In this document: piece by piece, positions 8,596 to 49,892 of the stretch | Position numbering within the stretch: position 1 is the first letter of the stretch | Layout: each line of letters begins with the position of its first letter | IMG/VR virus record: IMGVR_UViG_3300021168_000001 | Location: 1-64,000 of that record | Strand: one strand, 5' to 3' | Source: a virus | Length of the DNA: 64,000 bases | Notes under the pieces: generated by a model | Told to the model about the DNA's origin: nothing | Databases searched by the model: none | The model's input: the letters and a program-made list of their open reading frames with translations, nothing else | Program-made: the position numbers and the translations under genes

Positions 8596-9980
8596 GCGAC
8601 TACGAATATTCACTTCCAGCAGCGATCGATTCTGAGCGCGCAGTGCTTGGTGCTATTCTCCTGGACGATACATGCATTATCGAAGTCCAGGACAAGCTAG
8701 ATCCAGAAGATCTATATGTTAATTCCCATCAGCGTATCTTGCGACGGATGTATGAGCTTAACCAAGAGAAGATTGCAATCGATATTGTCACACTTTCAAA
8801 TAAACTCTCACAACACAAAGAAGTGGAATCTATAGGGGGTGTTGCTTTCCTCGCTTCACTCACCGAAAATCTCCCACGTCGTCCCGTGATTTCTGACTAT
8901 CTAAAAATAATCAAGGATAAGGCGCAGTTGCGGCGACTGATGTCCATTTGTTCAGCCGCCATCGCGCAAGCCGAGGACCAGAGCGACCCGGCACTGGACG
9001 TGTTGAGTGCTCTCTCCACTAAGATCGAAAACCAACTCACGAATGCCATCTCCGCAACATTTGAGCGTGCCGGCGATTTTCTTCACATCGAATTTCCCAC
9101 GCCGGAAAAGATGGTCGAGAAGAACGCTAGACAGACCGGCGTGGAAACTGGCTTTCGGCGCTTCGATGAAATGACATGCGGACTACAGCGCAAGGAACTC
9201 ATCATCATCGCCGCCAGACCCTCTATGGGAAAGACGTCACTCATGGGGGCGATCGCGGAACACGTGGGCCTGACCTGCGAGTCAATTGTGGGCATCAAGT
9301 CGCTCGAAATGTCGAAAGAGGCTCTGCTTCGCAGAATGATCTGCTCTCGGGCACGCGTCCCATCCCAGGACCACCGTAGCGGAGAAATGATCAATCACCC
9401 ACGCATGATGACCGACTTCGGCGAAGCCTACGAAGAGATCGCGCGTGCGTCGACCATCTACATCGATGACTCGCGCGACACCGCCAAAGGCATCGTTGTC
9501 AAGGCGCGGTCGATGAAGAAGAAACTCGGCCTGGACATTCTGATGATCGACTACCTTGGCCTGTTCCAGCACGATGACCGGAGAGGCGGCCATAACCAGA
9601 CGGCCGAAGTTGGGCTCGACTGCTTGATGATGAAGTGGCTGGCTCAGGAACTCGATATCCCCATAGTGCTCCTCTGCCAGCTCTCCCGTGCTCTTACTAA
9701 GCGTGAAGACAAACGGCCGGTCCTCGCCGATCTGCGCGACAGTGGCAACATCGAAGAGCACGCTGACATGGTGTCGTTCATTCACCGCGAAGGATACTAC
9801 GAACCGAAGGAAGAAAAGCTCAAGAATCAGGCCGAGTGGATCATCGCAAAACAAAGGAATGGCCCGGTGGGAACAATTGATCTTCACTGGGATGCGGAGT
9901 ACACCCGTCTTTCCGATCCGATCACGGCGGAGGACCTCAACACCCAAACTCAATACGACATGTGGAGTGCGATTCGATGA
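8592..9980 (+). CDS. dnaB: replicative DNA helicase
   Basis: ERAVLGAILLD, AARPSMGKT, SLEM, IDYL, QLSR, DLRDSGNIEEHAD, KQRNGPVG; GTG start overlapping the HNH stop. Confidence 0.95.
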   Translation: MSDYEYSLPAAIDSERAVLGAILLDDTCIIEVQDKLDPEDLYVNSHQRILRRMYELNQEKIAIDIVTLSNKLSQHKEVESIGGVAFLASLTENLPRRPVISDYLKIIKDKAQLRRLMSICSAAIAQAEDQSDPALDVLSALSTKIENQLTNAISATFERAGDFLHIEFPTPEKMVEKNARQTGVETGFRRFDEMTCGLQRKELIIIAARPSMGKTSLMGAIAEHVGLTCESIVGIKSLEMSKEALLRRMICSRARVPSQDHRSGEMINHPRMMTDFGEAYEEIARASTIYIDDSRDTAKGIVVKARSMKKKLGLDILMIDYLGLFQHDDRRGGHNQTAEVGLDCLMMKWLAQELDIPIVLLCQLSRALTKREDKRPVLADLRDSGNIEEHADMVSFIHREGYYEPKEEKLKNQAEWIIAKQRNGPVGTIDLHWDAEYTRLSDPITAEDLNTQTQYDMWSAIR

Positions 9981-11449: not shown

Positions 11450-13770
11450 GCTGCGACGTTATCATCGGTGACGCTATCGAGAAGCTGCGCACGCTGCCGC
11501 CCGAGTCCGTTCACTGCGTCGTTACGTCTCCTCCCTATTTTGGTTTGAGGGACTACGACATAGACGGACAGATCGGACTCGAGCCGACTATCGCGGAATA
11601 CCTTCGCAAACTGGTCGACGTGTTCCGCGAGATCCGCCGTGTGCTGCGCAGCGACGGAGTCCTTTTTGTTAACATGGGCGATACTTACAACGGTCAGAAC
11701 GAACGGGCCCCAAGCGTCCTGCCAAACGGCCAGTACAGCTTCCGGTCAGGAAGCGGACCCAAGGTACGCGTGGCCGGCCTAAAAGCCAAGGACCTCATCG
11801 GCATGCCCTGGCGCCTCGCGCTAGCCTTGCAGGACGATGGCTGGTACCTCCGCCAAGACATCATATGGTGTCTTTCAGGAGGGACATACGTCTACGCTCG
11901 CACGCAAAATGGCGATATGCCCATAATGGTCCGTGATCTAGCTCGGCTCAAGCCGAGCACGGTCCAGCTGTGGAACGGCCAGAAGTGGACTCGCTTACTC
12001 GGAACTTCCAAGTCGAAGCGTCGCGGTACGGAGTTGGAAATAGTCCTCCGTTCAGGCGAACGCATCTCCTGCACTCCGACTCACAGATTCCCGACTACGC
12101 GCGGGCTTTTGGAGGCACAAGAAATCCGAGCAGGCGACTGTCTAACCTCGTGTCGACTGCCACAACCCAATAATCCCAAAACCAGTGTGATCGATGAGGA
12201 TGCTGCATGGCTTGCAGGTCTCTACGTGGCCGAGGGTTCAATGTCCGGAGACACGATCCAGATAGCAGGACACGCTAGGGAGATTTCGCGGTGGATACGT
12301 CTCGGCTCGATCGCGGCTAAATATGGCGGCGCATGCACTCATTCGATCAAGGGCAACACAATGAACATTCGCCTCTACGGTAAAGTCTTGGTTGCCATCA
12401 TTCGGGAGTTAGTCACCGGGCGCACGGCGCGGGACAAGGGCTTTGCTCCTGTCGTATGGAGGCACTCCGATTCTTTTGTCAGTTCGATGTTGAATGGATA
12501 TTTGTCGGGCGATGGTGCCTATAGCGAAGAGAGGTGGCGTCTCGGATTCACGAGGAATTACAACCTGGAACGGGATCTCCGCACTGCCTGCGCTCGACTC
12601 GGCTACACCATCACTCTCAATCCATCCTCAGTCCTCTACAAAGGGAAGAAGCGTCCCACGTTCAGAGGAGAAATTCGATTCGAGCGAAGCGGCCATCACA
12701 ACGAAAAGGATCGCAACGAAGTAATCGAAGTTCGGAAGGCGCGGTGTCGAGAAGTCTACGACCTCGAGGTAGAGGATGAACCGCATGTCTTCGCGCTCGC
12801 GTCTGGCGTGCTCACTCATAACTCAAAGAAAAATCCGATGCCTGAGAGCGTTCGCGACCGCTGCACCAAGTCCCACGAATATATCTTTCTGCTCTCAAAG
12901 TCGGAGGAGTACTTCTTCGACATCGAAGCCATTAAAGAGAAGGCTAGCGGCACGGCTCACACGCGCGGCGGCGGCGTGAACCCAAAGGCCACCAAACATG
13001 GCCAGAACTCACGCATGCGCGTCGACCGCGATCCGCGGCACGCAAAGAAAGACACCGGAGTTGGCTGGGGCCGACTTTCGAAGCTGGATCCAGATAACAA
13101 TCAGAGAGACCGCAATCGCATCATCGGCCGAAGCAGCAAACAAAACCCATCATTTTCTGCTGCCGTGAATGAGCTCGTTACACACCGCAATAAGCGGAGC
13201 GTCTGGACCTTCGCCACATCGCCCTATCGAGAGGCACATTACTCGACCTTTCCTGTCACTCTTCCCGACATCTGCATTCGCGCCGGCACTAGCGAACATG
13301 GGTGCTGCGCTGTCTGCGGACGGCCGTTCGCGCGGCTCATCGAGGCATTCGACACCGGCTTAACTCAGAAGACTGCCAACGGCTGGGATATCGAGGAAAG
13401 ATCGCACGGATCGTCCCATCGCGATGGAAGAGACGGAAGAACAACAGAACGTCCGATCATTGCAACTCGCACTATCGGATGGGAATCGGACTGCTGCCCT
13501 CTCTTCGGTGGAACTGTGATCCCTTGCGTCGTCCTCGATCCTTTTGGCGGATCAGGAACCACTGGCCTGGCCGCCACGAAGCTGGGACGCAACTGCATTC
13601 TCATCGACTTAGACCCTAAGAACATTCCTTTGATCGAGAAACGACTTCGCTCTGCCGTCCCTGGAACACCCAAGCCTCGCCAGAGGAAGCTTGGCGCAAA
13701 AGAGCCAGTCGACTCTACATCATTGGTAACCAAATGCGGTGACCGTGGACACACCGTCGCGCGGATTTGA
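11446..13770 (+). CDS. DNA amino-methyltransferase (N4C/N6A, beta class) containing an intein
   Basis: VTSPPY near the N-terminus, NMGD, KDLIGMPWRLA, HEYIF, HYSTFP, VLDPFGGSGTT near the C-terminus. Confidence 0.92.
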   Translation: MSCDVIIGDAIEKLRTLPPESVHCVVTSPPYFGLRDYDIDGQIGLEPTIAEYLRKLVDVFREIRRVLRSDGVLFVNMGDTYNGQNERAPSVLPNGQYSFRSGSGPKVRVAGLKAKDLIGMPWRLALALQDDGWYLRQDIIWCLSGGTYVYARTQNGDMPIMVRDLARLKPSTVQLWNGQKWTRLLGTSKSKRRGTELEIVLRSGERISCTPTHRFPTTRGLLEAQEIRAGDCLTSCRLPQPNNPKTSVIDEDAAWLAGLYVAEGSMSGDTIQIAGHAREISRWIRLGSIAAKYGGACTHSIKGNTMNIRLYGKVLVAIIRELVTGRTARDKGFAPVVWRHSDSFVSSMLNGYLSGDGAYSEERWRLGFTRNYNLERDLRTACARLGYTITLNPSSVLYKGKKRPTFRGEIRFERSGHHNEKDRNEVIEVRKARCREVYDLEVEDEPHVFALASGVLTHNSKKNPMPESVRDRCTKSHEYIFLLSKSEEYFFDIEAIKEKASGTAHTRGGGVNPKATKHGQNSRMRVDRDPRHAKKDTGVGWGRLSKLDPDNNQRDRNRIIGRSSKQNPSFSAAVNELVTHRNKRSVWTFATSPYREAHYSTFPVTLPDICIRAGTSEHGCCAVCGRPFARLIEAFDTGLTQKTANGWDIEERSHGSSHRDGRDGRTTERPIIATRTIGWESDCCPLFGGTVIPCVVLDPFGGSGTTGLAATKLGRNCILIDLDPKNIPLIEKRLRSAVPGTPKPRQRKLGAKEPVDSTSLVTKCGDRGHTVARI
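11869..12822 (+). mobile_element. intein with LAGLIDADG homing endonuclease (318 aa)
   Basis: Starts CLSGGT, block B CTPTHRF, WLAGLYVAEGS and LNGYLSGDG, VYDLEV, ends LTHN followed by Ser; excision restores DIIW-SKKNPMPESVRDR. Confidence 0.92.
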
Positions 13771-38109: not shown

Positions 38110-39177
38110 TCAAATACCATCCGCGTATATCATCGTTTGGTTGCGCTTGAAGATCACCTGTGAGATGCAACCAACGAAGCCGGTCTGGTAGGCGCCGCCA
38201 GCCTGCATCGTCGGGACTGTGATGGATGTCTTCTTCGGCTGCGGAATCTTGAGGTAGAGCGACTTCTTCGAATTCTTGTAGAAGACCGCGCGATCAAGAC
38301 CGCCCGCGCCCGTTCCAGAAATCCACGGGTTGGGAAGGGAGTTGATTTTGAAGTTGATGCCGTTCTTGGCCGCCACACACTCACGCTCGATGTACGCGAT
38401 TGTCGAGAGCGCCACGGCCGATCCACCGATCGCCATCGGTTCGCTGAGAGTGGCGAACTGGCTATACGGAAGCAGGAGAGAATCCGGCATCGCCTCGGTG
38501 ATGTCATATCCGGAGTTCTGTACGACCTGGTTGAGCGCATTGTTGACGTCAAACAGGATCTCGGTCGGCGATTTCTTCACCCATGTGGTCGATCCGCCAG
38601 CGCCAGCTGGCACCACGAATTCAACGACGTTCGGGTTGTTGATGAGTCCCGGGTCGCCGAGGAATCCCTTATAGGTGACATAATCGAGAGCCTTCACCCA
38701 GTTGATGTCGACAGACTCCTCATACATCTCCTGAAGGGAGATAGGAGGAGGCATGCCGCTACGCTTTGCCGTCGCCAGTCGCTCGAGGTCGATGTAGGTG
38801 ATGGTCATGGCCATCGCCCACGGGTAGGTCTTCCAGAGCGACTTCTGGATATCAGCCTGCGCCTCGGGGATATCCGTGTTGTTGGTTCCCTGCAACCCAA
38901 AGAACTGGGTTCCAGTGGTACCGTAGTTGGTTGCGAAAGCTGCGAGATACTGCGGGAACCCTCCGCCTACATCCACGGAAATATCCCGAGCATGAGTCGT
39001 TGCCTGGAGAGGCCGGACAACGTCAGTATCGATGAGTTCCAATTGGCTTTGAAGGAACGCAAATCCAGATGCGCCGGCCGCGTCGAACGCCCTGCCACGC
39101 CCTCTTGGAGTTCCATCGAAGCCACGAGCGCGTCTAATCAATTCCCGATCGCGCTGACGAGAAGCGAATGTATTCAT
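38110..39177 (-). CDS. major capsid protein (DUF2184-like, HK97 fold)
   Basis: AFL..QLE.ID, DI....GGG, GL.NNP.V, W..K...EI..D.N, P..LLLP, Y.DGI. Confidence 0.92.
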   Translation of the reverse strand: MNTFASRQRDRELIRRARGFDGTPRGRGRAFDAAGASGFAFLQSQLELIDTDVVRPLQATTHARDISVDVGGGFPQYLAAFATNYGTTGTQFFGLQGTNNTDIPEAQADIQKSLWKTYPWAMAMTITYIDLERLATAKRSGMPPPISLQEMYEESVDINWVKALDYVTYKGFLGDPGLINNPNVVEFVVPAGAGGSTTWVKKSPTEILFDVNNALNQVVQNSGYDITEAMPDSLLLPYSQFATLSEPMAIGGSAVALSTIAYIERECVAAKNGINFKINSLPNPWISGTGAGGLDRAVFYKNSKKSLYLKIPQPKKTSITVPTMQAGGAYQTGFVGCISQVIFKRNQTMIYADGI

Positions 39178-40023: not shown

Positions 40024-41733
40024 TTACTTCACCTCCGCTGTGATCTTTTTACCGTGGCGATTGTTGTAAAACTCCTGGAGCTTCGTGATGTCGTCGCCGC
40101 CAGTCGCTCCACCACCGGCATCGGCTGCCCTCGCACGGCTCGCACCCGCGAAGCGCGCATATCCATTGCCGCTTGTTGAGAATGAATTCCCACTCACGCG
40201 GCGCATCTGCGCGTTGAACGCCTTGATGAGCGCCGAATCACCGCTACGCGCGATCAGCGGCTTGATGGCGCGCAATGCTTCTCGGGCCGCGGCGTCGGCT
40301 GCCCTCGCGAACTCTGCCGTATCCCGCGCGCGCTTCTTGCGTGGATCACCACCCTTGGTTCGCTTATAGCCTTCAGAGCCGCGAATCGGATGGAAGTTTC
40401 CACCTTCCGAATAGCCCTCGACGTCATCGGCGCGCTTGCGATCGCCAGCGTGGACGACTTCAGGCTCATCCTCTTCGTCGTACTCATCCTCATCGTCAGG
40501 ATCGGCGTCGTCGCCCTCTGCGCCCTCTTCGGGAATCAGGTCAGGATTGTCGGCATCGCCGCTTTCTCCGCCTCCCTCACCTTCGTGCATCGGCTCGTGC
40601 TGTTCTTCCTGAAGGTAGTTGTCCATCAATTTGCGGAGCTCGGCGATATCGGCATCTTCGGACCGGCGAGACTTGGCGTCCATCATCTTGTCAAGTGCCG
40701 AATGCAGCCTTTCACGCTCTTCGTCAGGTTCACCATCGCCAGCCTTACGATCATCTGCGCGGCGGTCATCGGAACGGCGACTATCGTCCGCTTTCCTGTC
40801 GTCGCTGCGGTGGCTATCGTCAGCGCGACGGTCATCGCTCTTTCGATCAGCGGCCTGCACAATTTTCGGCTCGGGTGGAATGTCCATCTGCGCTCCCTCA
40901 TCGTTGGCTCGCGCGGTTCCGGTTCTGGTGACTTTGCTCAGCTCCAGAGCGGCATCGGCCAACGATTCAGGATCCACACTCTCATCTTTGGCCGCATGCT
41001 GCAGCCCGTGGCCAAAGATACTCTTAAGCGTGAGTTTCATCAGCTTTTTCTCCTGTGGTGGATCGTTCTTTGTTGACGTTGAGGTTGAGTTACTGGCTGG
41101 GGTTTGTGGCTCAGGCTCAACCGCAGCCTGTTCCTCAACCGTGGCCACTTCTGGAGCGGCATCCATAATGCGTGCTTCGGGGCCCGCCCTACCCTTTGTA
41201 ACCACGGCCACATGATTGCCGACCATGGAGACTTGGAGAACGACATCGCCATCGCGATCAATGCTGTAGTCGTAGCCGCACGATACTTCGCGTTTGCGAT
41301 TCTTGAGAATCTCGGATATCAGGGGCTCCGCGGTAACAACCAGATCTCCGATGAGCGGCCACTCGCCATCATCCAAAACGTCTTTACCTTTGCGAACGTT
41401 TTGCACATGGCCACGCGCCAGATCATTGAAGTTTTCTGGCGTCACGAATTCCATGTTTGGCGGGTGATTGTCGGTGACAGTGGCGGCTTCGAAGCTATGG
41501 ATTGTGTCCGGATGAAATACCTCCTCCGGCGACCGATATAGACGCACCATCGCATTAGGATTTGAAGTGTCTATGCCGAGATCGTTGGCTCGCTCCTCGG
41601 GAAGCTCCGATACTTTGTAATCCTGAAATCCAGTTCTAGCTATTGTTACATCGTGGCAGACAATAGATCCGTTAGGCATCTGCGTGATGTTGTCGCTGAG
41701 CCGGCTTCCGAAGTACCCGATTCCTGTTTTCAT
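40024..41733 (-). CDS. capsid maturation protease-scaffold fusion (DUF2213-like)
   Basis: IARTG.Q.Y, R.PEEVF....SFE...VT..HP, GH..NVR, REVSCGY, NHVA.V..GRAG; acidic scaffold tail. Confidence 0.9.
   Translation of the reverse strand: MKTGIGYFGSRLSDNITQMPNGSIVCHDVTIARTGFQDYKVSELPEERANDLGIDTSNPNAMVRLYRSPEEVFHPDTIHSFEAATVTDNHPPNMEFVTPENFNDLARGHVQNVRKGKDVLDDGEWPLIGDLVVTAEPLISEILKNRKREVSCGYDYSIDRDGDVVLQVSMVGNHVAVVTKGRAGPEARIMDAAPEVATVEEQAAVEPEPQTPASNSTSTSTKNDPPQEKKLMKLTLKSIFGHGLQHAAKDESVDPESLADAALELSKVTRTGTARANDEGAQMDIPPEPKIVQAADRKSDDRRADDSHRSDDRKADDSRRSDDRRADDRKAGDGEPDEERERLHSALDKMMDAKSRRSEDADIAELRKLMDNYLQEEQHEPMHEGEGGGESGDADNPDLIPEEGAEGDDADPDDEDEYDEEDEPEVVHAGDRKRADDVEGYSEGGNFHPIRGSEGYKRTKGGDPRKKRARDTAEFARAADAAAREALRAIKPLIARSGDSALIKAFNAQMRRVSGNSFSTSGNGYARFAGASRARAADAGGGATGGDDITKLQEFYNNRHGKKITAEVK
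40735..40856 (-). repeat. degenerate tandem peptide repeat (R/K-x-[AS]-D-D) in the scaffold
   Basis: AADRKSDDRRADDSHRSDDRKADDSRRSDDRRADDRKAGD. Confidence 0.75.
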
Positions 41734-42528
41734 TTACCGAGTATCTCTTTCCCGTGGATCACGTTTCACGCCCATCTTGACTGCGCACGTTTCGCAGACT
41801 CGGCCCTGAGGGGTCGATATCATCCGCGAGGTTTCCTTTCCGCATCGTGCGCATTCGCTTTTCGCGTCGCCAGCCTTGCGCCCACGCACCGCATCGATAC
41901 AGCGATCGAGCGTGGCATGCAGGCGAGCGCGGATCGCGGCACGTCCGGTCTTTGATTGCGCTGGGTCGTACATCTCGGCTGGCGCGTCCTTGCTACGCAC
42001 GTCATCGTATGGCTGTAGCGGACGCGAGCGATGCTCAGAATGCTCGAAACCGCCTTCGCCTTCGAAGTCGTCCTTCATTCGCCGTTTGCGGTCCATCACC
42101 CGATCGAGCGCAGAGTGCATCCGTGCGCGGTGGTCCATGCAGTCGTTCGCCCTCACCATCTCATAGCTCCCTTCACCGCTCGGACTGCCGCGCGTGATCA
42201 CATCGTCTTCTTCGAATTCGGGGAGATTCTCTTCTACTTCAAATCGATCCGCACCATCGCCATCGATCGAGAATCCGCAGGTTGTCGAATGCCCCACTCC
42301 AGCACACCACTGCACCAAAGCGAGGAACCTTTCGAAGCGCTCGAGCACCTCGGCTGGCGCCGTGATTGTATAGGTCCGCGTTTCACCGGGATCCGCATCG
42401 GCGGTCATGCCTCTCGCATTCGCGGTCGCATAAAATACGGATTTCGCCTTTTTGGGGTCGGAGTAGGTTTTGCGCATTGCTCGCATCACCTTGTTGCCCT
42501 CGCCTTTGAAGTACGCTCCTATTGGCAT
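41734..42528 (-). CDS. modular hypothetical protein, candidate internal head cargo
   Basis: Start MPIGAYF; two copies of R.R[ML]H..LDR..D; A-x-D motifs; C-terminal CARC..CETC. Confidence 0.7.
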   Translation of the reverse strand: MPIGAYFKGEGNKVMRAMRKTYSDPKKAKSVFYATANARGMTADADPGETRTYTITAPAEVLERFERFLALVQWCAGVGHSTTCGFSIDGDGADRFEVEENLPEFEEDDVITRGSPSGEGSYEMVRANDCMDHRARMHSALDRVMDRKRRMKDDFEGEGGFEHSEHRSRPLQPYDDVRSKDAPAEMYDPAQSKTGRAAIRARLHATLDRCIDAVRGRKAGDAKSECARCGKETSRMISTPQGRVCETCAVKMGVKRDPRERDTR

Positions 42529-42533
42529 CGCAA

Positions 42534-42836
42534 TTAGTTCCCTGTGCAAATATTCAGGATTGCCTTCTTGCCGATTGAAATGGCCGCAATGTAAGTAGCG
42601 GCCCCAAGCACCAGGTATTGCGTGTCGCCGGCATTCACCATGAGGCTCGTGTTATTTACCGCAACCACAGTGACATCGCCCAACTGGACGGCGGCCGGGT
42701 CCGGACCAATATTCACCACGCGCACGACGGTATCGCCGCCGAGCGTTCCAGGCAATGCGACTCTGGATGATGTGGAACCGGCGCCCATCCCGATACAGGC
42801 GTCTGGGGCGAATGCAGATTGCGGCGTGGCTGGCAT
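42534..42836 (-). CDS. small beta-rich protein (possible virion decoration)
   Basis: VRVVN.G......LG; 100 aa in the head module. Confidence 0.6.
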   Translation of the reverse strand: MPATPQSAFAPDACIGMGAGSTSSRVALPGTLGGDTVVRVVNIGPDPAAVQLGDVTVVAVNNTSLMVNAGDTQYLVLGAATYIAAISIGKKAILNICTGN

Positions 42837-43271
42837 CTACTCAAGTCCTTTCCGGAAGTTCACGATCCACGGTGCACCTAGCAGCTCCATGTGCGCCTTC
42901 ATTGATACTTCGTTGTGTCCATGCACAGCTGCCGAAATGTGCTTCAGGCCGCGTGCCCGACATTCCTGTTCAAGCCGCTCGATCAATTTCCCATATAGAC
43001 CGCGGCGCCGGTGGCGGAGGTCGGTCCATGCAAGGCCGATGAATGCACCATCACACCACTCCTGCCAAATGATCATCGATATCGGCTCACCATCCTCATT
43101 GCGCATGAGGATCAGCGAATTGTCTTTTACGGGAAGATAGGAACCTCCGACATTTCCCATTTCGATCTTCAGGTCATGCGCTATGCCGTGGGCGATGCTG
43201 ACACAGAATTCGAGGATGTTGGTATCCTCGATCGTTCCCATTACTTCGATCGTTTCGGTCACCGCGCGCAT
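42837..43271 (-). CDS. GNAT-family acetyltransferase
   Basis: HRRRGLYGKL acetyl-CoA motif, V...N..S. Confidence 0.75.
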   Translation of the reverse strand: MRAVTETIEVMGTIEDTNILEFCVSIAHGIAHDLKIEMGNVGGSYLPVKDNSLILMRNEDGEPISMIIWQEWCDGAFIGLAWTDLRHRRRGLYGKLIERLEQECRARGLKHISAAVHGHNEVSMKAHMELLGAPWIVNFRKGLE

Positions 43272-43630
43272 AGGATTCCGAAGCAATCGACGCGCACCAG
43301 GCCGCGTCCGGTTCCATCCTGCGGGTGCGGATCCCAGGCCATCTGTCCGTTCAATCCGACTACCGCATGCAAGTGCCCGCGTGGGCTCTTGCCCTCGATC
43401 GTGTGATACACGGGCCCATTCTTGAATGCCTGTTTCAACCCAGGCGAATCGATGTCAACCTGAATGTAATAGAGGTTGAATTGCTTTAAAAAATCCTGAG
43501 TTTGACTTAGAAACAAATCGTCGGTAGCGAATTCAGGGACATCGGCTTCTTTTATTTCGAGGATCGATGCCAGACATGCCTGAAAACAGCGGCCATTTTT
43601 CCCGGTGCGGCTTTGCGTCTGTGGGATCAC
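43259..43630 (-). CDS. small papain/C39-like protein
   Basis: Q......G.CF.ACLASIL, G.SPRG..HAVV......WDP (Cys-His-Asp). Confidence 0.55.
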   Translation of the reverse strand: MIPQTQSRTGKNGRCFQACLASILEIKEADVPEFATDDLFLSQTQDFLKQFNLYYIQVDIDSPGLKQAFKNGPVYHTIEGKSPRGHLHAVVGLNGQMAWDPHPQDGTGRGLVRVDCFGILCAR

Positions 43631-46600
43631 GCTTTCACCGCTCCGGCTGGTCTGTTGAGGTTTGCCGTCGCGAGCCAGTACTTGAAGTCATCGATTTGCA
43701 TCGGCGAGATGTCCATCATCACTTCATCGGCACGGTGATGAGCTTTAGGATAGGCTCGTTTCACCTCGCCAAGCGTATCGAATCCCAGGAACACCTTGTG
43801 CTCATCGAATCCCTTAGAAGTATGCAGATGGCGCTGGTCAACGATATAAACCCAATCGCTCTCAGGGTCCGGCCCGATGTAACAATCGAGCGAATCACCA
43901 TCGGCTCCGGTGAACCCTTCGATATATCCATAGTGTGCCGGCATCCGGACCGACCATCCTTTGCCCGATCGAATATGGCCCTTGGGTGTCTCGACCACAC
44001 ACGTAAGACCATGAATGTTGAACTCCATCACGCCCGGGTCATCGGCGTCGGCGGCGCGCCCTGGCTCGTCCATTTCAAGCGGATCGAAGCCAAGCATGTC
44101 GATCACCGACCGCGGCGTGCGCTCGAGCTCTGCATCATCATCGACGTCGTCGAAGTCGCCTTCGTATTGGCGCCAGTCGTCATCGGTCCGCTGCGCCGAT
44201 CCATAGTGCACTTCGGGCAATTCCACACCAAATGCCTTATCGAAGGCCTCTTTGAAGAAATTGAGTTTGGTATCTCCGGCCCTCGCCGGCTCGGCGCTGC
44301 CCTCGCTCGCAGATTTCCATCCCGAGAAGATCTGCGGAGGAATATAGGACTGCAACGCGACGATTGGTGTGTTGCCGAGTTTCTCGGAAACAGCCTTCGC
44401 AACCTCCATTACCGCTTTCTTGTACTCCTTCGGATTGGTCGGGGCTTTCACTTTCTCGACAAGGCCGTTCGCGGTCTCGGCCGCCAGCGCGGTGCGAAAG
44501 TCCTTTGTCTTGAAGCCGCCGTGATCGAGGTTGTCCTTCGTGAAGTCGCGCAGGCTCGCATCGCTCACGGACGGAAAGAGATTGCCTTTCTCACCGGCCT
44601 TGGCACGCAGCTCTTTCAGCATCGATCCAAGCTGTGCGTCCTCGACCGGCAACGATATAGTCACGCCCTTCTTCCCAACGAAGCGCAGTCGCACGCTGTT
44701 GCCAAGCTGCCATACATGATGCCCCTGCAAGGTCGACGCACCATAGGCCTTTACCGCGCCTCCCGTGTCCGAATCGCTGCCGGGCCGGATCCCAGTCTTG
44801 CGCACCAGGTACATGCAGTCGGCATGATCCCGTACCTTGGCGTCCTTACTCTTGCGGAAGCCGTCCAGCTGCTTGTCGATCAGGCTCATGTTCTTTTGCA
44901 GTGCCTGGACGCGCTGGAACTTCAGGTCCGCCTGGCTGTTCTTGAACGTAGGCGAGTAGACATATTGCTTGCGACCTTTCGAATCGAGACCGGTTGCCAA
45001 CAGGTCGGCCTTTGGCATCGGCGAGATTCGAACATCCTTCCACGCTGGCGGGATCTTCAGCGACTTGGCATGCTCCGGCCAGTCCTCGCGACTGGAGTAG
45101 GACTGAAGGTGCGCGGTCTTTGTCGATTCCTCGCCCCCCGAACCGCCAGTGCTTTCTTTATCGGGATCGCTGGACCCTTCGCCACCACCGGGCTCCTCAC
45201 GCGGTCCCATGCCCTTCCGCCGACGCTCCCAGGCCTTCTTTGAAGCTTTTGAATCATCGGTCGCCCTAGCCACCGCAGATAGCGCTCGCTTCTCGGCGCG
45301 CTGCGGCCCGAACAGCTTCTGCATCGTCGCAAGGCGCTTGTCGTCCTGCTCCCCTTCAGGATCGCCGCCCGGCTCTTTGCCGCTCTCGCCCTTGCTCCCT
45401 TGTCCCTCTTCTTCTCCACCCTCGCCTGTAAGCGATTCAAGACCACCCTCGCCGCCGCCCTGCTCGCCCATGCTCATGACGTCATCGGACAGAGCCGCGA
45501 TCCGCTCATCGGTAAGATTCGTTCCGAAGCCAGTTGCGTCGGAGGCCTGCTTCACCTCTTCGGCGCCAGCCCGCGGCGACATGATGCCGAGGTTGATGGC
45601 GACCGCCACCGTATCAAGAGTGGCCTTGGCAAGCTCCGACTTTTCCTTTTCATCCAATACGCGGACGGATGGGAAGTTGAGGTCCAGATCGTCGGGGATC
45701 TCACCGAGCTCCGACATGCAAAGCACCGGGTACAGTTTCTCGAGCTGTGGCCGCAGTTCAACGTCCTGGTCGGTGGCGATCTTCTCCTCGTAGATTCGCT
45801 CATCGGCATCGTTCGATTGCCCAAGTCCGCTGATCGTGCGCCCCCAAAGACGCGTGACCGGGATTTGTGTCGCACCTGAGATGTCCAACTGAAACTGCTG
45901 ATAAACATCGCTGAGGCCGGTGAAGGTATAGTTCACGGCCTCGATCCCGCCATCGGCCGGAAGCGGCACCAGGCTCTGGTTTGACAGCAAGTGGTTCAGG
46001 GTTGTCATGCGCTGCTGAAACTGTATCGCGGCTTGCTGGTTCATGCCGACGCCAGAAAGAACCTTTGCCAGTTCCGGAAACTTCATACCAAGAATGCAGG
46101 CGCGGAACGTGAGCGATAGTATGTTCCAACTCATGTTGTCGCGCTTGCGAATCTCTTCATAGGCCGGCTCGATCACCGATATGCCCCAGTAAGTCTGCGC
46201 CTCATACTCCGGCGTCGGCACCTCTGGCCCGCTGAAGCGCAGTATTCGCGACGAGTGCACTAGAAAACTCTCGGCATCCGGCGCAGTGACCCGGTACATC
46301 TCCGGCTTGTTGAAGTCGGTCGGCCGATTGATGTCCGTGCAGATATCGCCGTGCGGCTGAATGCCTGTCCAGCGATCGAACGGGATCAGGCCTTTGTAAT
46401 CGCCGACGCCGATCGTGTCAGGATCCAGCGGCTCCTCGAGATTATCCTCTTGACCATCGATCACCATGAGTGCGCCGCCGCCCCCGAAAAGCCTCGCCCA
46501 CTTCAGCGCACGGAGAAGCGTCGATTTGGTCTGCGTGCGGCGAATCTTGCGATCGATCTTTGTCAGATCTTCGGGAGGGATATCGCTCGTCAGCTTCGGC

Positions 46601-46893
46601 CAGGCCCTCACCATATCCTGCGCTGGCGTATCAACGATGCGCCGAGAAATCCAGTGGTTCCGATAGAGAGTTATCAGGAGCCAGTAGTTGAAGCTCAGCC
46701 TATCGAGTTCATACGTCGCTGCCTCGGCAAGATTTGGTGTGCCGTATCCCATGCGAGCCGGCACATTTGAAAAATAGTCGAATGCCTGCGCATCGAATCC
46801 TTGTCCGAAACCCATCCTCTGGAGCTGCGCCTGCCGCTCCATATCCGGATTGGTCCCAGCCCTGATCCTACGGCGCTGCTGCAATTCAGGCAT
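43627..46893 (-). CDS. portal protein (DUF1073-like) fused to type IB topoisomerase and InPase-like domains
   Basis: Portal: LYR..W..RRIVD.PA.DM, WARL.GG, H.SR, WG.S, IP.TRL.G...G. TopIB: IPPAW, GRKQY.Y, GIRPG, FVGKKG, KDFRT, LGNT....SYI. InPase: ETPKG..R, YGYI....GADGD..D, FDEHKV.LGF. Confidence 0.9.
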   Translation of the reverse strand: MPELQQRRRIRAGTNPDMERQAQLQRMGFGQGFDAQAFDYFSNVPARMGYGTPNLAEAATYELDRLSFNYWLLITLYRNHWISRRIVDTPAQDMVRAWPKLTSDIPPEDLTKIDRKIRRTQTKSTLLRALKWARLFGGGGALMVIDGQEDNLEEPLDPDTIGVGDYKGLIPFDRWTGIQPHGDICTDINRPTDFNKPEMYRVTAPDAESFLVHSSRILRFSGPEVPTPEYEAQTYWGISVIEPAYEEIRKRDNMSWNILSLTFRACILGMKFPELAKVLSGVGMNQQAAIQFQQRMTTLNHLLSNQSLVPLPADGGIEAVNYTFTGLSDVYQQFQLDISGATQIPVTRLWGRTISGLGQSNDADERIYEEKIATDQDVELRPQLEKLYPVLCMSELGEIPDDLDLNFPSVRVLDEKEKSELAKATLDTVAVAINLGIMSPRAGAEEVKQASDATGFGTNLTDERIAALSDDVMSMGEQGGGEGGLESLTGEGGEEEGQGSKGESGKEPGGDPEGEQDDKRLATMQKLFGPQRAEKRALSAVARATDDSKASKKAWERRRKGMGPREEPGGGEGSSDPDKESTGGSGGEESTKTAHLQSYSSREDWPEHAKSLKIPPAWKDVRISPMPKADLLATGLDSKGRKQYVYSPTFKNSQADLKFQRVQALQKNMSLIDKQLDGFRKSKDAKVRDHADCMYLVRKTGIRPGSDSDTGGAVKAYGASTLQGHHVWQLGNSVRLRFVGKKGVTISLPVEDAQLGSMLKELRAKAGEKGNLFPSVSDASLRDFTKDNLDHGGFKTKDFRTALAAETANGLVEKVKAPTNPKEYKKAVMEVAKAVSEKLGNTPIVALQSYIPPQIFSGWKSASEGSAEPARAGDTKLNFFKEAFDKAFGVELPEVHYGSAQRTDDDWRQYEGDFDDVDDDAELERTPRSVIDMLGFDPLEMDEPGRAADADDPGVMEFNIHGLTCVVETPKGHIRSGKGWSVRMPAHYGYIEGFTGADGDSLDCYIGPDPESDWVYIVDQRHLHTSKGFDEHKVFLGFDTLGEVKRAYPKAHHRADEVMMDISPMQIDDFKYWLATANLNRPAGAVKA

Positions 46894-46909
46894 TTATGCT
46901 CGACTCCGT

Positions 46910-47152
46910 TCATTCAGGCTTGTCCAGCCAGATCACTTTGCTTTCGTCGTAAGGCAGCGCTTGAATTCGTTTTCCATTTCGAATGAAAGCCCAGAGTACA
47001 CGGCTGTCTGGATTCACAATGGCCAAAAGAACTGCGAGATCGATCTCGAATCCGTTGACTTTCATCACACATCGATCCTGATCGACGAGGACCTTCGTGA
47101 GTTTTCGCACGGCGATCACCGCCTTTGTATTTACCCCAAAAAGAAGGGCGCG
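46910..47152 (-). CDS. hypothetical protein
   Basis: MRALLFG...WLD; fits the gap. Confidence 0.55.
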   Translation of the reverse strand, partial: RALLFGVNTKAVIAVRKLTKVLVDQDRCVMKVNGFEIDLAVLLAIVNPDSRVLWAFIRNGKRIQALPYDESKVIWLDKPE

Positions 47153-47200
47153 CATTGGGTACGCGCCCTGGCCTAAGTGATGCAACTCCTCTTTGGGAGC

Positions 47201-48001
47201 TTACTGTTGAACAAAAGTTAGAACGCCGTTGATGCCGCCTGTTCCGGTCGACAGCACGCAGAGTGCATTTCCAGCTGGAGTCGCGAACCTGCTTCCCTCG
47301 CCGCTCAGTCCCAGCACTGCGCCCGTCGCCGGTGCGAATGCGCCTGTCAATACCGTTGTCCCTGTCCCGCAGGTGGTGCCAGTTCCATATTCGAATTGGG
47401 CGGTCGTTGTAGCACCAACGCTGGCAGTAAATCCGCAGGCATAGACTACTTTGCCGGCGCTCAGTGCCACTAGCTGTGTGGTCGTAGCCGTGCTGATCGC
47501 GACTGACACACTGGACTTTGTTACCGATGGATTCTCGCATGGATCACCAATATTGGCCAGAATCATTGACGCCGATGGACTGAACGTTATGTTCAACAAT
47601 CCGGCAGTCGGGTAGGTGCTCGAGCAAGCATAGGTGGCCACATACTGATCGCCCGTGCTGACCCCGGGAAACACCTGAAAGCTCTGTACACCGGTCGACG
47701 GCGTAAAGCTCACGGTCGCTACAGTTGATCCTGCCGTATTCACATTGTTTGACTGATAAGCTAGCGTGACGGTGCAGCCGCTCGGCGATCCGGTGATTCC
47801 AGATTCAACAATCGTCAGCGTGCCCACGCCAGAAAAGTTCGGCAACCGCGATGCAGGGCTGGTCTGCGTGGCCGTGGCGGATACTGCCGTAAACAGGCTC
47901 ACCCCGGACTGAGATGTATAGGTGGTCTGGGCGATTGACGGAATGACAGCTGCCGCAAGCAGAGCCAGGATCGAAGTAATAACCGAAAACTTGAGTTTCA
48001 T
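47201..48001 (-). CDS. signal-peptide-bearing Ser/Thr/Cys-rich beta protein
   Basis: MKLKFSVITSILALLAAAVIPSIA-Q; six Cys. Confidence 0.75.
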   Translation of the reverse strand: MKLKFSVITSILALLAAAVIPSIAQTTYTSQSGVSLFTAVSATATQTSPASRLPNFSGVGTLTIVESGITGSPSGCTVTLAYQSNNVNTAGSTVATVSFTPSTGVQSFQVFPGVSTGDQYVATYACSSTYPTAGLLNITFSPSASMILANIGDPCENPSVTKSSVSVAISTATTTQLVALSAGKVVYACGFTASVGATTTAQFEYGTGTTCGTGTTVLTGAFAPATGAVLGLSGEGSRFATPAGNALCVLSTGTGGINGVLTFVQQ

Positions 48002-48031
48002 GTGCTTTTCCCTTCTGCCTTGCGGCGTTGG

Positions 48032-48679
48032 TTAGGTTGTGGTTCGTACTGCATCGATTACTCGATCGAGCGCGATGTGCATCCGTTGCCGATAAACGGA
48101 ATCGCTATCCGTAGCCTTGGCCGCGGCACGCTTCGCACGCATCGTCTCCCAGGCTTTCTTGGCCGCCGCGCTGCGTCCACCACCGCTTCCAGCTGCTGGC
48201 TTCTCCGCAGTCTTCGGCCGTTCGCTGCTTGAAGACGATGGCTGCTTTCGAGCTTCGCGCTTCTGTTGTTGCTCCTGCTCCCGTTTTCCGGCCCGCTGCC
48301 GAGACCGTTCGTGCGCTTGGCGCATAAAGTCTTCCCACGCGGATCGCGCAGCCGGTCGCGGCGAATGCTGGGATCCTTGCTGCTGATGCTGGCCGCGTTG
48401 CCGTGCAGCATTCGGGCCTAGCGTTTCGTAATTGTGAGACCCGGCCTGGTAGGAAGGCTCGTACTGATGGACCTTCTCGAGAAAGGCATTGGCCTCGGCA
48501 GTGTTACCAACCTTGCGGCTCGACGTCTCCATCGCCTTGAGTTTATTCAAGATCTCGGGAGATACATCTTTGCCGATCGCGTCCATCGCGCGAAAGATCT
48601 TCTGGATGTCGTTGGCACGGCGCACATTAGGTCTGCGTTCGTACAAATGTTCCATCCTTGTCTTCGCTCGGTCGCTCAT
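48032..48679 (-). CDS. candidate internal head cargo (DUF2786-like helical hairpin, KKAWE motif)
   Basis: ILNKLKAM....GNTAEA.AF; AAKKAWETMR; C-terminal RQRMHIALDRVID. Confidence 0.65.
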   Translation of the reverse strand: MSDRAKTRMEHLYERRPNVRRANDIQKIFRAMDAIGKDVSPEILNKLKAMETSSRKVGNTAEANAFLEKVHQYEPSYQAGSHNYETLGPNAARQRGQHQQQGSQHSPRPAARSAWEDFMRQAHERSRQRAGKREQEQQQKREARKQPSSSSSERPKTAEKPAAGSGGGRSAAAKKAWETMRAKRAAAKATDSDSVYRQRMHIALDRVIDAVRTTT

Positions 48680-49047
48680 TGCGGCCTTGTCACGGCTGGC
48701 GCGTCAGCTGGATATTGTGCGTTCTCAAGCCTCTGCACTTTCGGAATTACATAGGAGTCCTGAGTCTGCGATACCTGCTGCAATTGAGACCGCATCGAGA
48801 GCACCTGTTCAACAAGATCACGCTGCCTCTGCGAGTCGTTCATTACCGATGCACGCACGGCCAACTCGAGGCGCCCCAGACGCTGGTCGATCTCTTCATC
48901 ATGCCTCTCGTGCTCGAGAATCTGCCTGAGCGCCTGTGTCTGCCGGTCATCGGCATATTTATTTATCTTCGCCAGACCGCCAAAGATCGATCCGACAATC
49001 GTTAGAGCCGTGGCCACCGTCGCGAGAGTGATGTGTTTCGGCGTCAT
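48676..49047 (-). CDS. N-anchored membrane coiled-coil protein
   Basis: AAGGAG RBS, ATGA overlap with the MuF stop, one TM then coiled coil. Confidence 0.65.
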   Translation of the reverse strand: MTPKHITLATVATALTIVGSIFGGLAKINKYADDRQTQALRQILEHERHDEEIDQRLGRLELAVRASVMNDSQRQRDLVEQVLSMRSQLQQVSQTQDSYVIPKVQRLENAQYPADAPAVTRPQ

Positions 49048-49892
49048 GCCGCTGTGCGCTCCTTCATCCCGCTCAGGTTCCTGAAAGCGATTCGAGTCAT
49101 GCTCATGATCCGGCCGTTCCGATGAACGCGGTGTGGCCATTTCACATCATCGAGTGTGAGCAGCGGAGATTGAGGACAACGACAATTTGGAAAAGTTCCT
49201 CCGTGCCCACGTCCCAATGTGCTTTTCTCTCCAATTAAAGCCTCTGGCGATGGCGGGTCATCATAGAACACGATCACACCTTCCATATTTTTATGACTCG
49301 GCCTCACCCTCGTATCTTCCGACGTCAACCATTCGTAGCACGGTAGCCCGAGATGCTCGGCGCGCGCCTGCGTGAGAGCCGCGCTTGCCTTCATCGTTTC
49401 GGTCCGCGCGATCAGATTAATCCTGGTTCGCGTGAGTTGCGGAAACCGGTGTCGCATCATCTTGGCGATCGCTTCCGGCCGGGCCCCTGCCTGCTGCGCC
49501 TCCGCGATCTCGCCCGTCAACTGCTGAGCGACCTTTCGCGGAATACTCGAGATATAGGCCGCATTCTCATCAACTATCCTGCGAAGTGCAATCCCGACCG
49601 GCCCGGCCATTTCCCGCTGCAGGAGCCGATGTAACATTGAGCTCCGTTGCGCCCGCGTCGCCGCTTCACGCCAGGTTCTCGCGTTCAGCACGTTGACCCA
49701 CCGGCCCATCTCGCCGGCGACATAGGCTGCGGCATCAGCAACGTCTCGCCGCTCGCTCACCGCCGCCAGTTCTGCAATCCACTGCTCGAAGCTTACATCC
49801 GGCTTGCGTTGGGGGATGCTCGACAACATGAGTCTGCGGATCAGCCGCTGATACTCGAGTTCGATCCGTCGCGTAACCGTAAAGTCACTCAT
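49044..49892 (-). CDS. MuF/SPP1 gp7-like head morphogenesis protein (short form)
   Basis: N...I.SIP, LIARTE..KA, Y.W.TS.D.RVR.SH, PNCRC. Confidence 0.92.
   Translation of the reverse strand: MSDFTVTRRIELEYQRLIRRLMLSSIPQRKPDVSFEQWIAELAAVSERRDVADAAAYVAGEMGRWVNVLNARTWREAATRAQRSSMLHRLLQREMAGPVGIALRRIVDENAAYISSIPRKVAQQLTGEIAEAQQAGARPEAIAKMMRHRFPQLTRTRINLIARTETMKASAALTQARAEHLGLPCYEWLTSEDTRVRPSHKNMEGVIVFYDDPPSPEALIGEKSTLGRGHGGTFPNCRCPQSPLLTLDDVKWPHRVHRNGRIMSMTRIAFRNLSGMKERTAA

Follow-up and report, generated by a model that had tools for sequence, protein, structure and literature searches.

A conserved helix of a phage prohead protease-scaffold recurs on unrelated head-module proteins and may act as a capsid-loading tag

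The 64,000-nt window analysed here (positions 1 to 64,000 of IMG/VR virus record IMGVR_UViG_3300021168_000001) was taken from a complete phage contig of 103,269 bp, and its head module encodes a DUF2213 prohead protease fused to a scaffold region. A predicted amphipathic helix of 13-20 residues, with the consensus D-x-R-x-R-[ML]-H-x-A-L-D-x-[VM]-[ML]-D and hereafter called the tag, was found in this scaffold and again on other proteins of the same module; it also occurs on small non-scaffold proteins among the head genes of at least 14 related uncultured phages. The initial annotation of the window had pointed to the shared helix and proposed that it lets cargo co-assemble with the scaffold; the observation was confirmed and generalised, and the loading interpretation is plausible, with good support from the comparison of related loci. 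On balance, we think it probable that the helix is a position-independent, protease-removable tag for loading the young capsid. In such a mechanism, the copies on head-module proteins would be portable docking elements, effective at any position, that attach their passengers to the protease-scaffold core during prohead assembly, and the passengers would thereby be enclosed. The gp21-fold protease, presumed to be Asp-specific, would then cut [RK]-A-x-D-type sites bordering the tag, and this cut would part the tag from its passenger as the scaffold itself is dismantled. Binding, receptor, encapsidation, cleavage and the fate of the passengers (delivery to the host or a role as auxiliary core) are all parts of the model that we infer. 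The idea of capsid targeting by a short peptide is already known; what seems to be new here is a tag that looks like a copy of a scaffold helix, is independent of position and is often present in several copies.

Recurrence of the scaffold helix in this phage and its relatives

Four tag peptides had been listed in the window, and all four were found at their coordinates (Table 1); they are encoded on the minus strand, since plus-strand translations give unrelated peptides, and two of them share one open reading frame (ORF), so that there are three host proteins, not four. When all six frames of the 103,269-bp genome were searched with the strict tag pattern, only four occurrences were obtained, compared with an analytic chance expectation from residue frequencies of 1.8e-5 per genome and with none in 300 triplet-shuffled genomes. 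Synonymous codon positions vary among the four copies at the DNA level, which argues that the tag peptide is under selection and that no recent DNA duplication is involved. The host proteins had been described as dissimilar outside the motif, and this was borne out by library and homologue comparison. A search of the full-text literature with the motif strings returned no papers.

A motif profile of 19 columns was built from the motifs of the homologues, with this phage's own copies left out, and every ORF of 30 aa or more from 160 related loci and from this genome was scanned with it at a threshold of at least 14 bits. The scan gave 87 matches, 25 of which were outside DUF2213 ORFs; as two of these are scaffolds split from their protease (loci L132 and L135), 23 copies on 17 ORFs in 14 loci were retained. 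No match was obtained when the same ORFs were reversed, and none when they were shuffled. Chance similarity, or an artefact of Arg/Asp-rich low-complexity sequence, would be the simplest alternative, and the scaffold linker is indeed rich in R, D and A; this explanation is refuted by the controls, namely four observed copies against the expectation given above and 87 real matches against no reversed or shuffled ones, as well as by the invariant His and Asp, and we assign it practically no probability.

All 23 non-scaffold copies are on the head-gene strand, and the proteins that carry them have no common family. The most frequent tagged position is directly upstream of the scaffold gene, where seven tagged ORFs were found. 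Several ORFs carry more than one copy: L121 74-1741 has three, and two or three are also present in L112 476-1594, L092 6540-7085 and L093 4821-5213. A scan of relatives had been suggested as a check for clustering of the motif in head genes, and in six whole genomes (about 580 kb, six frames) all 12 matches of at least 12 bits were located between the MuF and capsid genes, so that no random spread among non-head proteins was seen there. One further pattern match, obtained in the whole record of G004 (L164), was rejected as an off-frame chance match. Extra copies were present in 13 of 56 distinct loci with a motif-bearing scaffold and in 1 of 87 loci without one (Fisher p = 1.9e-5, the loci being related to one another); in the single exceptional locus the scaffold ORF is truncated by the contig end. 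Among the 25 motif-scaffold loci having at least 5 kb of upstream sequence, 10 had extra copies.

Two other conserved blocks of the scaffold were traced in the same way. A profile of the acidic second scaffold helix matched no non-scaffold ORF at 12 bits or more, and a profile of the scaffold C-terminal tail matched one, a 'mini-scaffold' of locus L001; because these two blocks were found in none and one of the non-scaffold ORFs, respectively, the reuse is specific to the tag helix. The L001 'mini-scaffold' (9320-9976) lies directly upstream of the protease-scaffold gene and combines a tag with a copy of the scaffold C-tail (ERLQRAYDSIR), the only reuse of that tail seen.

The helix had also been described as portable, and this description held well, as N-terminal, C-terminal and internal placements were all found, in single or multiple copies. 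The tag is C-terminal in the 215-aa protein of the window and in L010 and L121, internal in the 264-aa protein and in L112 and L100, and N-terminal in L090, in L166, where it is followed by ARAARD, and in the library proteins P0125 and P0126. The 215-aa protein has three homologues in a library of 1.84 billion proteins: P0124 is its orthologue and has kept the C-terminal tag, and P0125 and P0126 share its N-terminal domain and have an intact N-terminal tag with an A-x-D site after it (DRRARLHAALDAIMDRARAQD↓VS..., with the arrow marking the presumed cut). At the position of this intact P0125/P0126 tag, the 215-aa protein itself has the decayed relic RRANDIQKIFRAMDAIGKD. Since these homologues carry tags at opposite ends, the tag behaves as an autonomous module that can stand at either end of one passenger.

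The copies on passengers, called cargo copies here, follow a sub-consensus R-[AS]-R-L-H-R-A-L-D-x-V-M-D-R, whereas the scaffold copies read M-H-D-A-L-D-R-M-L. Numbered from the His, the two kinds differ at -3, -1, +1, +6 and +7, with R-4, R-2, H0, A+2, L+3, D+4 and D+8 in common, and the cargo tags are more basic than the scaffold tags. The distinct sub-consensus indicates a separate constraint on the cargo copies. Co-variation between the scaffold residue at +1 (Asp) and the cargo residue at +1 (Arg) was suggestive and inconsistent locus by locus.

The same properties have a bearing on another explanation, in which the helix is a module for self-association, such as a coiled coil or a metal-bridged oligomerisation element, or for nucleic-acid or host-factor binding, which serves the activity of the proteins themselves, was spread by domain shuffling among neighbouring genes and has no loading role. 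The stripe formed by R-4, H0, D+4 and D+8, together with a hydrophobic stripe, is typical of helix-helix or metal-mediated contacts, the tagged proteins had no known function in library searches, the 215-aa protein is very basic and the 264-aa protein has a zinc-ribbon-like end. However, such a module leaves unexplained the restriction to head clusters and the dependence on a motif-bearing scaffold, the swap between N- and C-terminal tags with decay of the unused copy, and the protease-type sites bordering the tags, and we therefore regard it as quite improbable.

The protease-scaffold and the sites bordering the tag

The ORF with the scaffold copy matched PF09979 over residues 18-191 with 134.8 bits against a cutoff of 22 (3.8e-39). 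In an AlphaFold2 (AF2) model built on 120 homologues, the N-terminal domain (residues 10-190) had a predicted local distance difference test (pLDDT) value above 90 and was followed by a series of helices. This domain superimposed on T4 gp21 (5jbl_B) with Z 10.7 and a root-mean-square deviation of 3.1 over 131 of 164 residues, and on herpesvirus proteases with Z 6-8.2; the top Foldseek matches were to the same families, with weak E-values. Residues H90, H109, S151 and H174 are invariant in the 120 homologues and are candidate catalytic residues. Because its N-terminal domain has both the PF09979 match and the gp21/herpesvirus protease fold, the 'scaffold' of the initial annotation is a prohead protease fused to a scaffold, an arrangement as in herpesviruses, P2 and lambda.

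Within the scaffold half, the tag is the best-conserved element. An alignment of 33 scaffold homologues shows no exception at H344 and D348 and at least 90% conservation at R340, L347 and D352; with 120 homologues, conservation reaches at least 90% at H344, L347 and D348. The pattern [MLIVF]-H-x-x-[LIVM]-D was found in 74 of the 120 full-length homologues, with about 104 instances if Ala was permitted at the hydrophobic position, and many of these homologues lie on contigs of about 100 kb from bog and soil metagenomes. Such conservation supports the view that the tag is native to the scaffold of the whole clade of uncultured soil and peat phages of about 100 kb. The scaffold consensus at the tag reads D-D-x-R-K-R-M-H-D-A-L-D-R-M-L-D; it is followed by a conserved acidic helix (DAD..EL..LL.EFL.EEE.EPEH), and the C-terminus is conserved as K-L-Q-x-x-Y-D...K-G-G-K. 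The linker before the scaffold tag shows the same repeat style in homologues, and its R/K-A-D-D and K-A-G-D sequences are candidate protease sites at which the protease could be parted from the scaffold core. A single-sequence search of viral contigs with the scaffold gave no matches, and the related loci were obtained by alignment-based searches. In L132 (9962-11466) and L135 (245-1752) the protease and the scaffold half are encoded by two genes; the scaffold ORF there starts at an ATG with a AAGGAAAA-type ribosome-binding site of its own and retains the tag helix.

Most tag copies had been said to lie near an A-x-D site, and in fact all four copies of the window have [RK]-A-x-D within 4-6 residues; the scaffold copy is preceded by KAGD, as seen in the translation and site list, and the other sites are given in Table 1. 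In the related loci, [RKSTGM]-A-x-D occurred within 15 residues upstream of 9 of the 23 cargo copies, compared with 4.0 expected (P = 0.008). The capsid protein provided a second line of evidence on the cleavage site. More than 100 related major capsid proteins (MCPs) have a leader of variable length and then a conserved ...A-x-[FM]-D↓A-A-G-x-S-G-x-A-F-L. The mature capsid of coliphage TLS has the N-terminus ASDMGIW by Edman sequencing (PMC11447400), so that TLS is cut after Asp, at A-K-N-D↓A-S(DMGIW), and this Asp aligns with D32 of R-A-F-D↓A-A-G in the present phage. A tblastn search with the MCP did not reach TLS, and the link to TLS is based on Pfam, in which TLS gp33 is PF09979 and gp36 is PF09950, and on sequence alignment. 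Taken together, these alignments support, by homology to a measured site, a putative Asp-specific cut at small-x-D sites in this clade. The literature on DUF2213 and DUF2184 contained no cleavage or tag data for the clade, and phage 7-7-1 (PMC3517404), considered for comparison, was dropped as an HK97-type case.

The closeness of tags and putative cleavage sites raises the main rival explanation, namely that the helix is chiefly a substrate-recognition element (exosite) for the DUF2213 protease, which docks on the protease domain and directs nearby A-x-D cuts, with loading as a by-product. With protease and scaffold fused in one protein, the two explanations overlap. An exosite would fit the position of tags at domain junctions, one per junction (three in L121, two each in L112, L092 and the 264-aa protein), the A-L-D or R-A-L-D contained in the motif itself and the upstream enrichment of A-x-D; in L132 and L135, where the protease has a gene of its own and the helix stays with the scaffold, the helix could bring in the unattached protease. 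On the other hand, the portal and the MCP have A-x-D sites, including the cut aligned with TLS, and no tag, so the helix is not required for cutting; their lack of a tag is what one would expect if only proteins not intrinsic to the shell need one. In addition, gp21-fold proteases bind their substrates as extended strands at short sites (PMC7411985), and nearly the whole circumference of the helix is conserved, which suggests burial in a bundle and not a surface exosite. We judge a mainly exosite role to be unlikely.

If the helix is a loading tag, it could dock onto the acidic second scaffold helix, onto other copies of itself or onto the protease domain. The acidic helix is a plausible partner because the cargo copies, which occur without that helix, are more basic, although its assignment as the partner is speculation. 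A complex predicted from protease residues 1-200, scaffold residues 325-400 and the tail of the 215-aa protein (170-215) gave ipSAE values of 0.26 and 0.13, below the mark of 0.32, and is no evidence either way. The wider proposal that the helix is a general multi-copy 'address label', which would pair with the scaffold core and plausibly with the acidic second helix, is held tentatively, at somewhat less than an even chance.

A number of findings weigh against the loading interpretation. Downstream of the tags, A-x-D was found for 5 of 23 copies with 5.0 expected, i.e. without enrichment. The Asp that is nearly constant at -5 or -6, ahead of the helix, may be no more than a helix N-cap, or else a cut site; the A-L-D held by the motif could be a cleavage determinant and not a docking element, and multiple tags at domain junctions fit a role as cleavage junctions as well as they fit avidity. 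Extra copies occur in only about a quarter to 40% of the clade loci, and these loci are phylogenetically related, so the counts overstate independence. When the scaffold was compared with cultured phages by tblastn, the protease domain alone was matched, and no cultured relative with the scaffold half was found. Lastly, the passengers have no known function in Pfam or PHROG, and their role as cargo is a presumed one.

Tagged proteins and the head module

The two tagged proteins of the window differ in design (Table 1). The first lies in an ORF of 271 aa (41734-42549); translation probably begins at the ATG at 42528, which makes a protein of 264 aa. It consists, in order, of a 'VFYAT' module, a small conserved domain, tag 1, a linker, tag 2 and a CxxC...CxxC zinc-ribbon-like end. 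Neither the whole protein nor the N-terminal 'VFYAT' module matched any Pfam or PHROG family, a search of the ESM Atlas with the protein gave nothing above noise, and a homologue search with the ORF returned one partial relative with the small domain alone in common. The 215-aa protein is helical and very basic (isoelectric point 10.5). Its N-terminal domain is conserved and is followed by a basic stretch of low complexity, by KATD and, at the extreme C-terminus, by the tag; the protein resembles internal DNA-associated proteins in composition only. Among 18 tagged and neighbouring proteins searched against Pfam and PHROGs, the only informative families were phrog_5845 and phrog_2423, both without assigned function.

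To call these proteins cargo is an assumption because they might instead have an auxiliary role in the core or its assembly and end up degraded, not delivered. In that alternative, the tagged ORFs would encode accessory components of the scaffold or core, comparable to T4 gp67/gp68 or to a second small scaffold, which join the assembly by means of the helix and are later broken down and expelled along with the scaffold. Several facts agree with it, in that tags are most often found on the ORF just upstream of the scaffold gene, the L001 'mini-scaffold' unites a tag with the scaffold C-terminal tail, and the tagged ORFs are small and of low complexity. However, some tagged proteins are large and multi-domain (373-556 aa), some carry the phrog_5845 globular domain, of which this phage has an untagged version, and, as with T4 internal proteins, single sites stand beside the tag and the passenger is not strewn with them. 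The docking mechanism would be the same as for a loading tag, and only the passenger fate would differ; we consider this alternative rather unlikely.

Some further observations were made on the modules of these proteins. The small domain TYTITAPAEVLERFERFLALVQWCAGVGHSTTCGFSIDGDGADRFEV (42243-42386, minus strand, residues ~51-98 of the 264-aa protein) shows 61% identity to the C-terminus of the unrelated 247-aa metagenomic protein P0002 and is also present in L008/L009 at 11655-12218. The N-terminal module of about 45 residues (window 42370-42528, minus strand) has the consensus M-P-x-x-x-Y-F-G-G-H-G-x-x-V-M-x-x-M-K-x-x-Y-G-x-x-K-G-E-x-V-F-Y-A-T-A-N-K-R-G and recurs in many relatives (L010 9785-9982, L092 6561-7085, L011 5909-6295, L024 9030-9665, L007 7111-9747, L083 3943-7056 and L078 8266-8646), where it starts the ORF directly upstream of the protease-scaffold gene, in ORFs from 66 aa up to 879-1038 aa. 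In L078, the most distant complete relative, the module ORF has two G-Q-S-V-L-H-A-[VI]-D-A repeats; this is a different His/Asp peptide with H-x-x-D spacing and was unmatched by the tag profile.

On the minus strand, the order of the head module is MuF, a small ORF, the 215-aa protein, a 266-aa protein, a portal fusion, the phrog_5845 protein, GNAT, the 264-aa protein, DUF2213, a phrog_563 protein and the PF09950 capsid protein. The synteny of DUF1073 portal, MuF, protease and PF09950 capsid is therefore present, in the order known from TLS. The portal fusion has RATD (residue 543), RAGD (871) and RAAD (946) close to its domain borders and no tag helix. The phrog_5845 protein has a conserved Cys (G-x-C-F...A-S-I-L) and His (H-A-V-V-G) and resembles, in these motifs, a small thiol peptidase. 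The copy of the window is untagged, and the tag is present in C-terminal extensions of the homologues in L100 (6971-8158), L085 (6678-7838) and L119 (4956-5864).

Table 1. Features of the head module in the 64,000-nt window, with the tag copies, adjoining sites and genes
Feature	Position	Strand	Remarks
Scaffold tag copy RERLHSALDKMMD	40678-40716	minus	residues 340-352 of the DUF2213 protease-scaffold; reverse-complement translation
Tag copy 1 of the 264-aa protein RARMHSALDRVMD	42091-42129	minus	motif hidden Markov model (HMM) 20.2 bits
Tag copy 2 of the 264-aa protein RARLHATLDRCID	41893-41931	minus	motif HMM 17.4 bits
C-terminal tag of the 215-aa protein RQRMHIALDRVID	48053-48091	minus	motif HMM 15.5 bits
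Degenerate N-terminal tag relic RRANDIQKIFRAMDAIGKD in the 215-aa protein	48566-48622	minus	His to Phe; alignment with homologues, translation
RAND before tag copy 1 of the 264-aa protein	42142-42153	minus	translation, site list
KAGD after tag copy 2 of the 264-aa protein	41866-41877	minus	translation, site list
KATD before the tag of the 215-aa protein	48107-48118	minus	translation, site list
DUF2213 prohead protease (residues ~10-190) fused to scaffold region, 569 aa	40024-41733	minus	PF09979, PHROG head maturation protease families
Predicted helix around the scaffold tag	40663-40725	minus	residues 337-357; AF2 pLDDT 89 over 341-350
Second conserved acidic scaffold helix DADIAELRKLMDNYLQEEQHEP	40591-40662	minus	conserved block in 33- and 120-sequence alignments
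Acidic/basic linker with repeated R/K-A-D-D and K-A-G-D	40726-40848	minus	directly N-terminal to the scaffold tag; translation, site list
264-aa tagged protein gene	41734-42528	minus	directly upstream of the protease-scaffold; P0001 in public collection
215-aa protein gene	48032-48679	minus	next to the MuF gene; homologues P0124-P0126
MuF	49044-49892	minus	head module
Portal (PF06381) fused to topoisomerase IB catalytic core and C-terminal InPase domain	43627-46893	minus	
phrog_5845 protein, 123 aa	43259-43630	minus	
GNAT acetyltransferase	42837-43286	minus	inside the head cluster, between portal and 264-aa protein
PF09950 capsid protein (MCP)	38110-39177	minus	
R-A-F-D in the MCP leader, residues 29-32	39082-39093	minus	probable maturation cut RAFD↓AAG

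Comparison with known systems and implications

The closest functional parallel is the capsid-targeting sequence (CTS) of phage T4, which stands on the non-essential internal head proteins IPI-III and Alt, has about 10-20 residues, is N-terminal, binds the core and is removed by gp21 (Mullaney and Black 1996, as described in PMC9958956 and PMC7411985). This analogy had been drawn from the start and is apt, given the gp21 fold of the protease, although the kinship of the two proteases is distant and structural only. In both cases a short peptide is found next to a protease site, here a candidate one, on otherwise unrelated non-structural head-module proteins, and in T4 it is proven to direct them to the core; P1 is acidic in both, Glu in T4 and Asp here. 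The differences are that the T4 CTS is N-terminal only, whereas the present tag is N-terminal, C-terminal or internal with up to three copies per protein, and that the T4 CTS is not copied from the scaffold, whereas the tag repeats a conserved helix of the scaffold. Moreover, the T4 CTS is experimentally proven and the tag is known from sequence comparison; the two sequences were set apart by the judgement of the initial annotation.

The cleavage sites are (L or I)-x-E in T4 and A-x-E in the giant phage SPN3US, in which the ejection proteins gp47, gp53 and gp54 have long N-terminal propeptides and the protease gp245 has a C-terminal propeptide, with support from mass spectrometry (PMC7411985). 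The present phage and SPN3US are alike in a cleavage motif with Ala at P3 and an acidic P1; however, the SPN3US propeptides are of 60-130 residues, have no shared short motif, and have Glu instead of Asp at P1. With the T1-like phage TLS (gp31 DUF1073 portal, gp32 MuF, gp33 DUF2213, gp36 PF09950), gene order and Pfam families are the same (PMC11447400). TLS gp33, at 369 aa, is without the R-x3-H-x2-L-D-x3-D helix and without the long scaffold half. We know of no tagged accessory proteins in TLS.

In the herpesvirus pUL26/pUL26.5 and P22 scaffolds, internal self-association elements and C-terminal capsid-binding elements are present, and the scaffold, which brings in minor proteins, is cleaved and expelled. 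The herpesvirus case is also similar in having a protease of the same fold fused to the scaffold, as judged from the fold match and general knowledge; its cleavage site, (V or L)-x-A↓S, is unlike the Asp sites here, and to our knowledge neither system has a portable copy of a scaffold helix on other proteins. The cargo-loading peptides of encapsulins and the C-terminal tail of the HK97 protease are short terminal peptides that suffice to load an HK97-fold shell. They bind the shell protein directly and are usually C-terminal and extended, and the encapsulin peptides are not removed. In contrast, the tag is helical and copies a segment of the scaffold, and the candidate protease sites next to it argue for its removal, unlike the retained encapsulin peptide. 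Encapsulins are covered in PMC8346489.

If the loading interpretation is true, packaged proteins would become predictable from metagenomic sequence for a large clade of uncultured soil and peat phages. The choice of the non-structural proteins that are enclosed and injected is, as far as we know, understood for only a handful of model phages, chiefly T4, P1 and the giant phages. If the 'address label' proposal is also true, a simple profile would read out the whole packaged set, including polyproteins of small putative effectors. The loading interpretation by itself would give cargo loading a simple evolutionary route, the copying of a scaffold helix onto any protein at either end, and would provide a compact, protease-removable tag for loading HK97-fold capsids; under the 'address label' proposal, this tag of 13-20 residues could also be used as a programmable, self-removing signal for encapsulation. 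A cut after Asp by the large DUF2213 protease family also gains further support from the sites described here.

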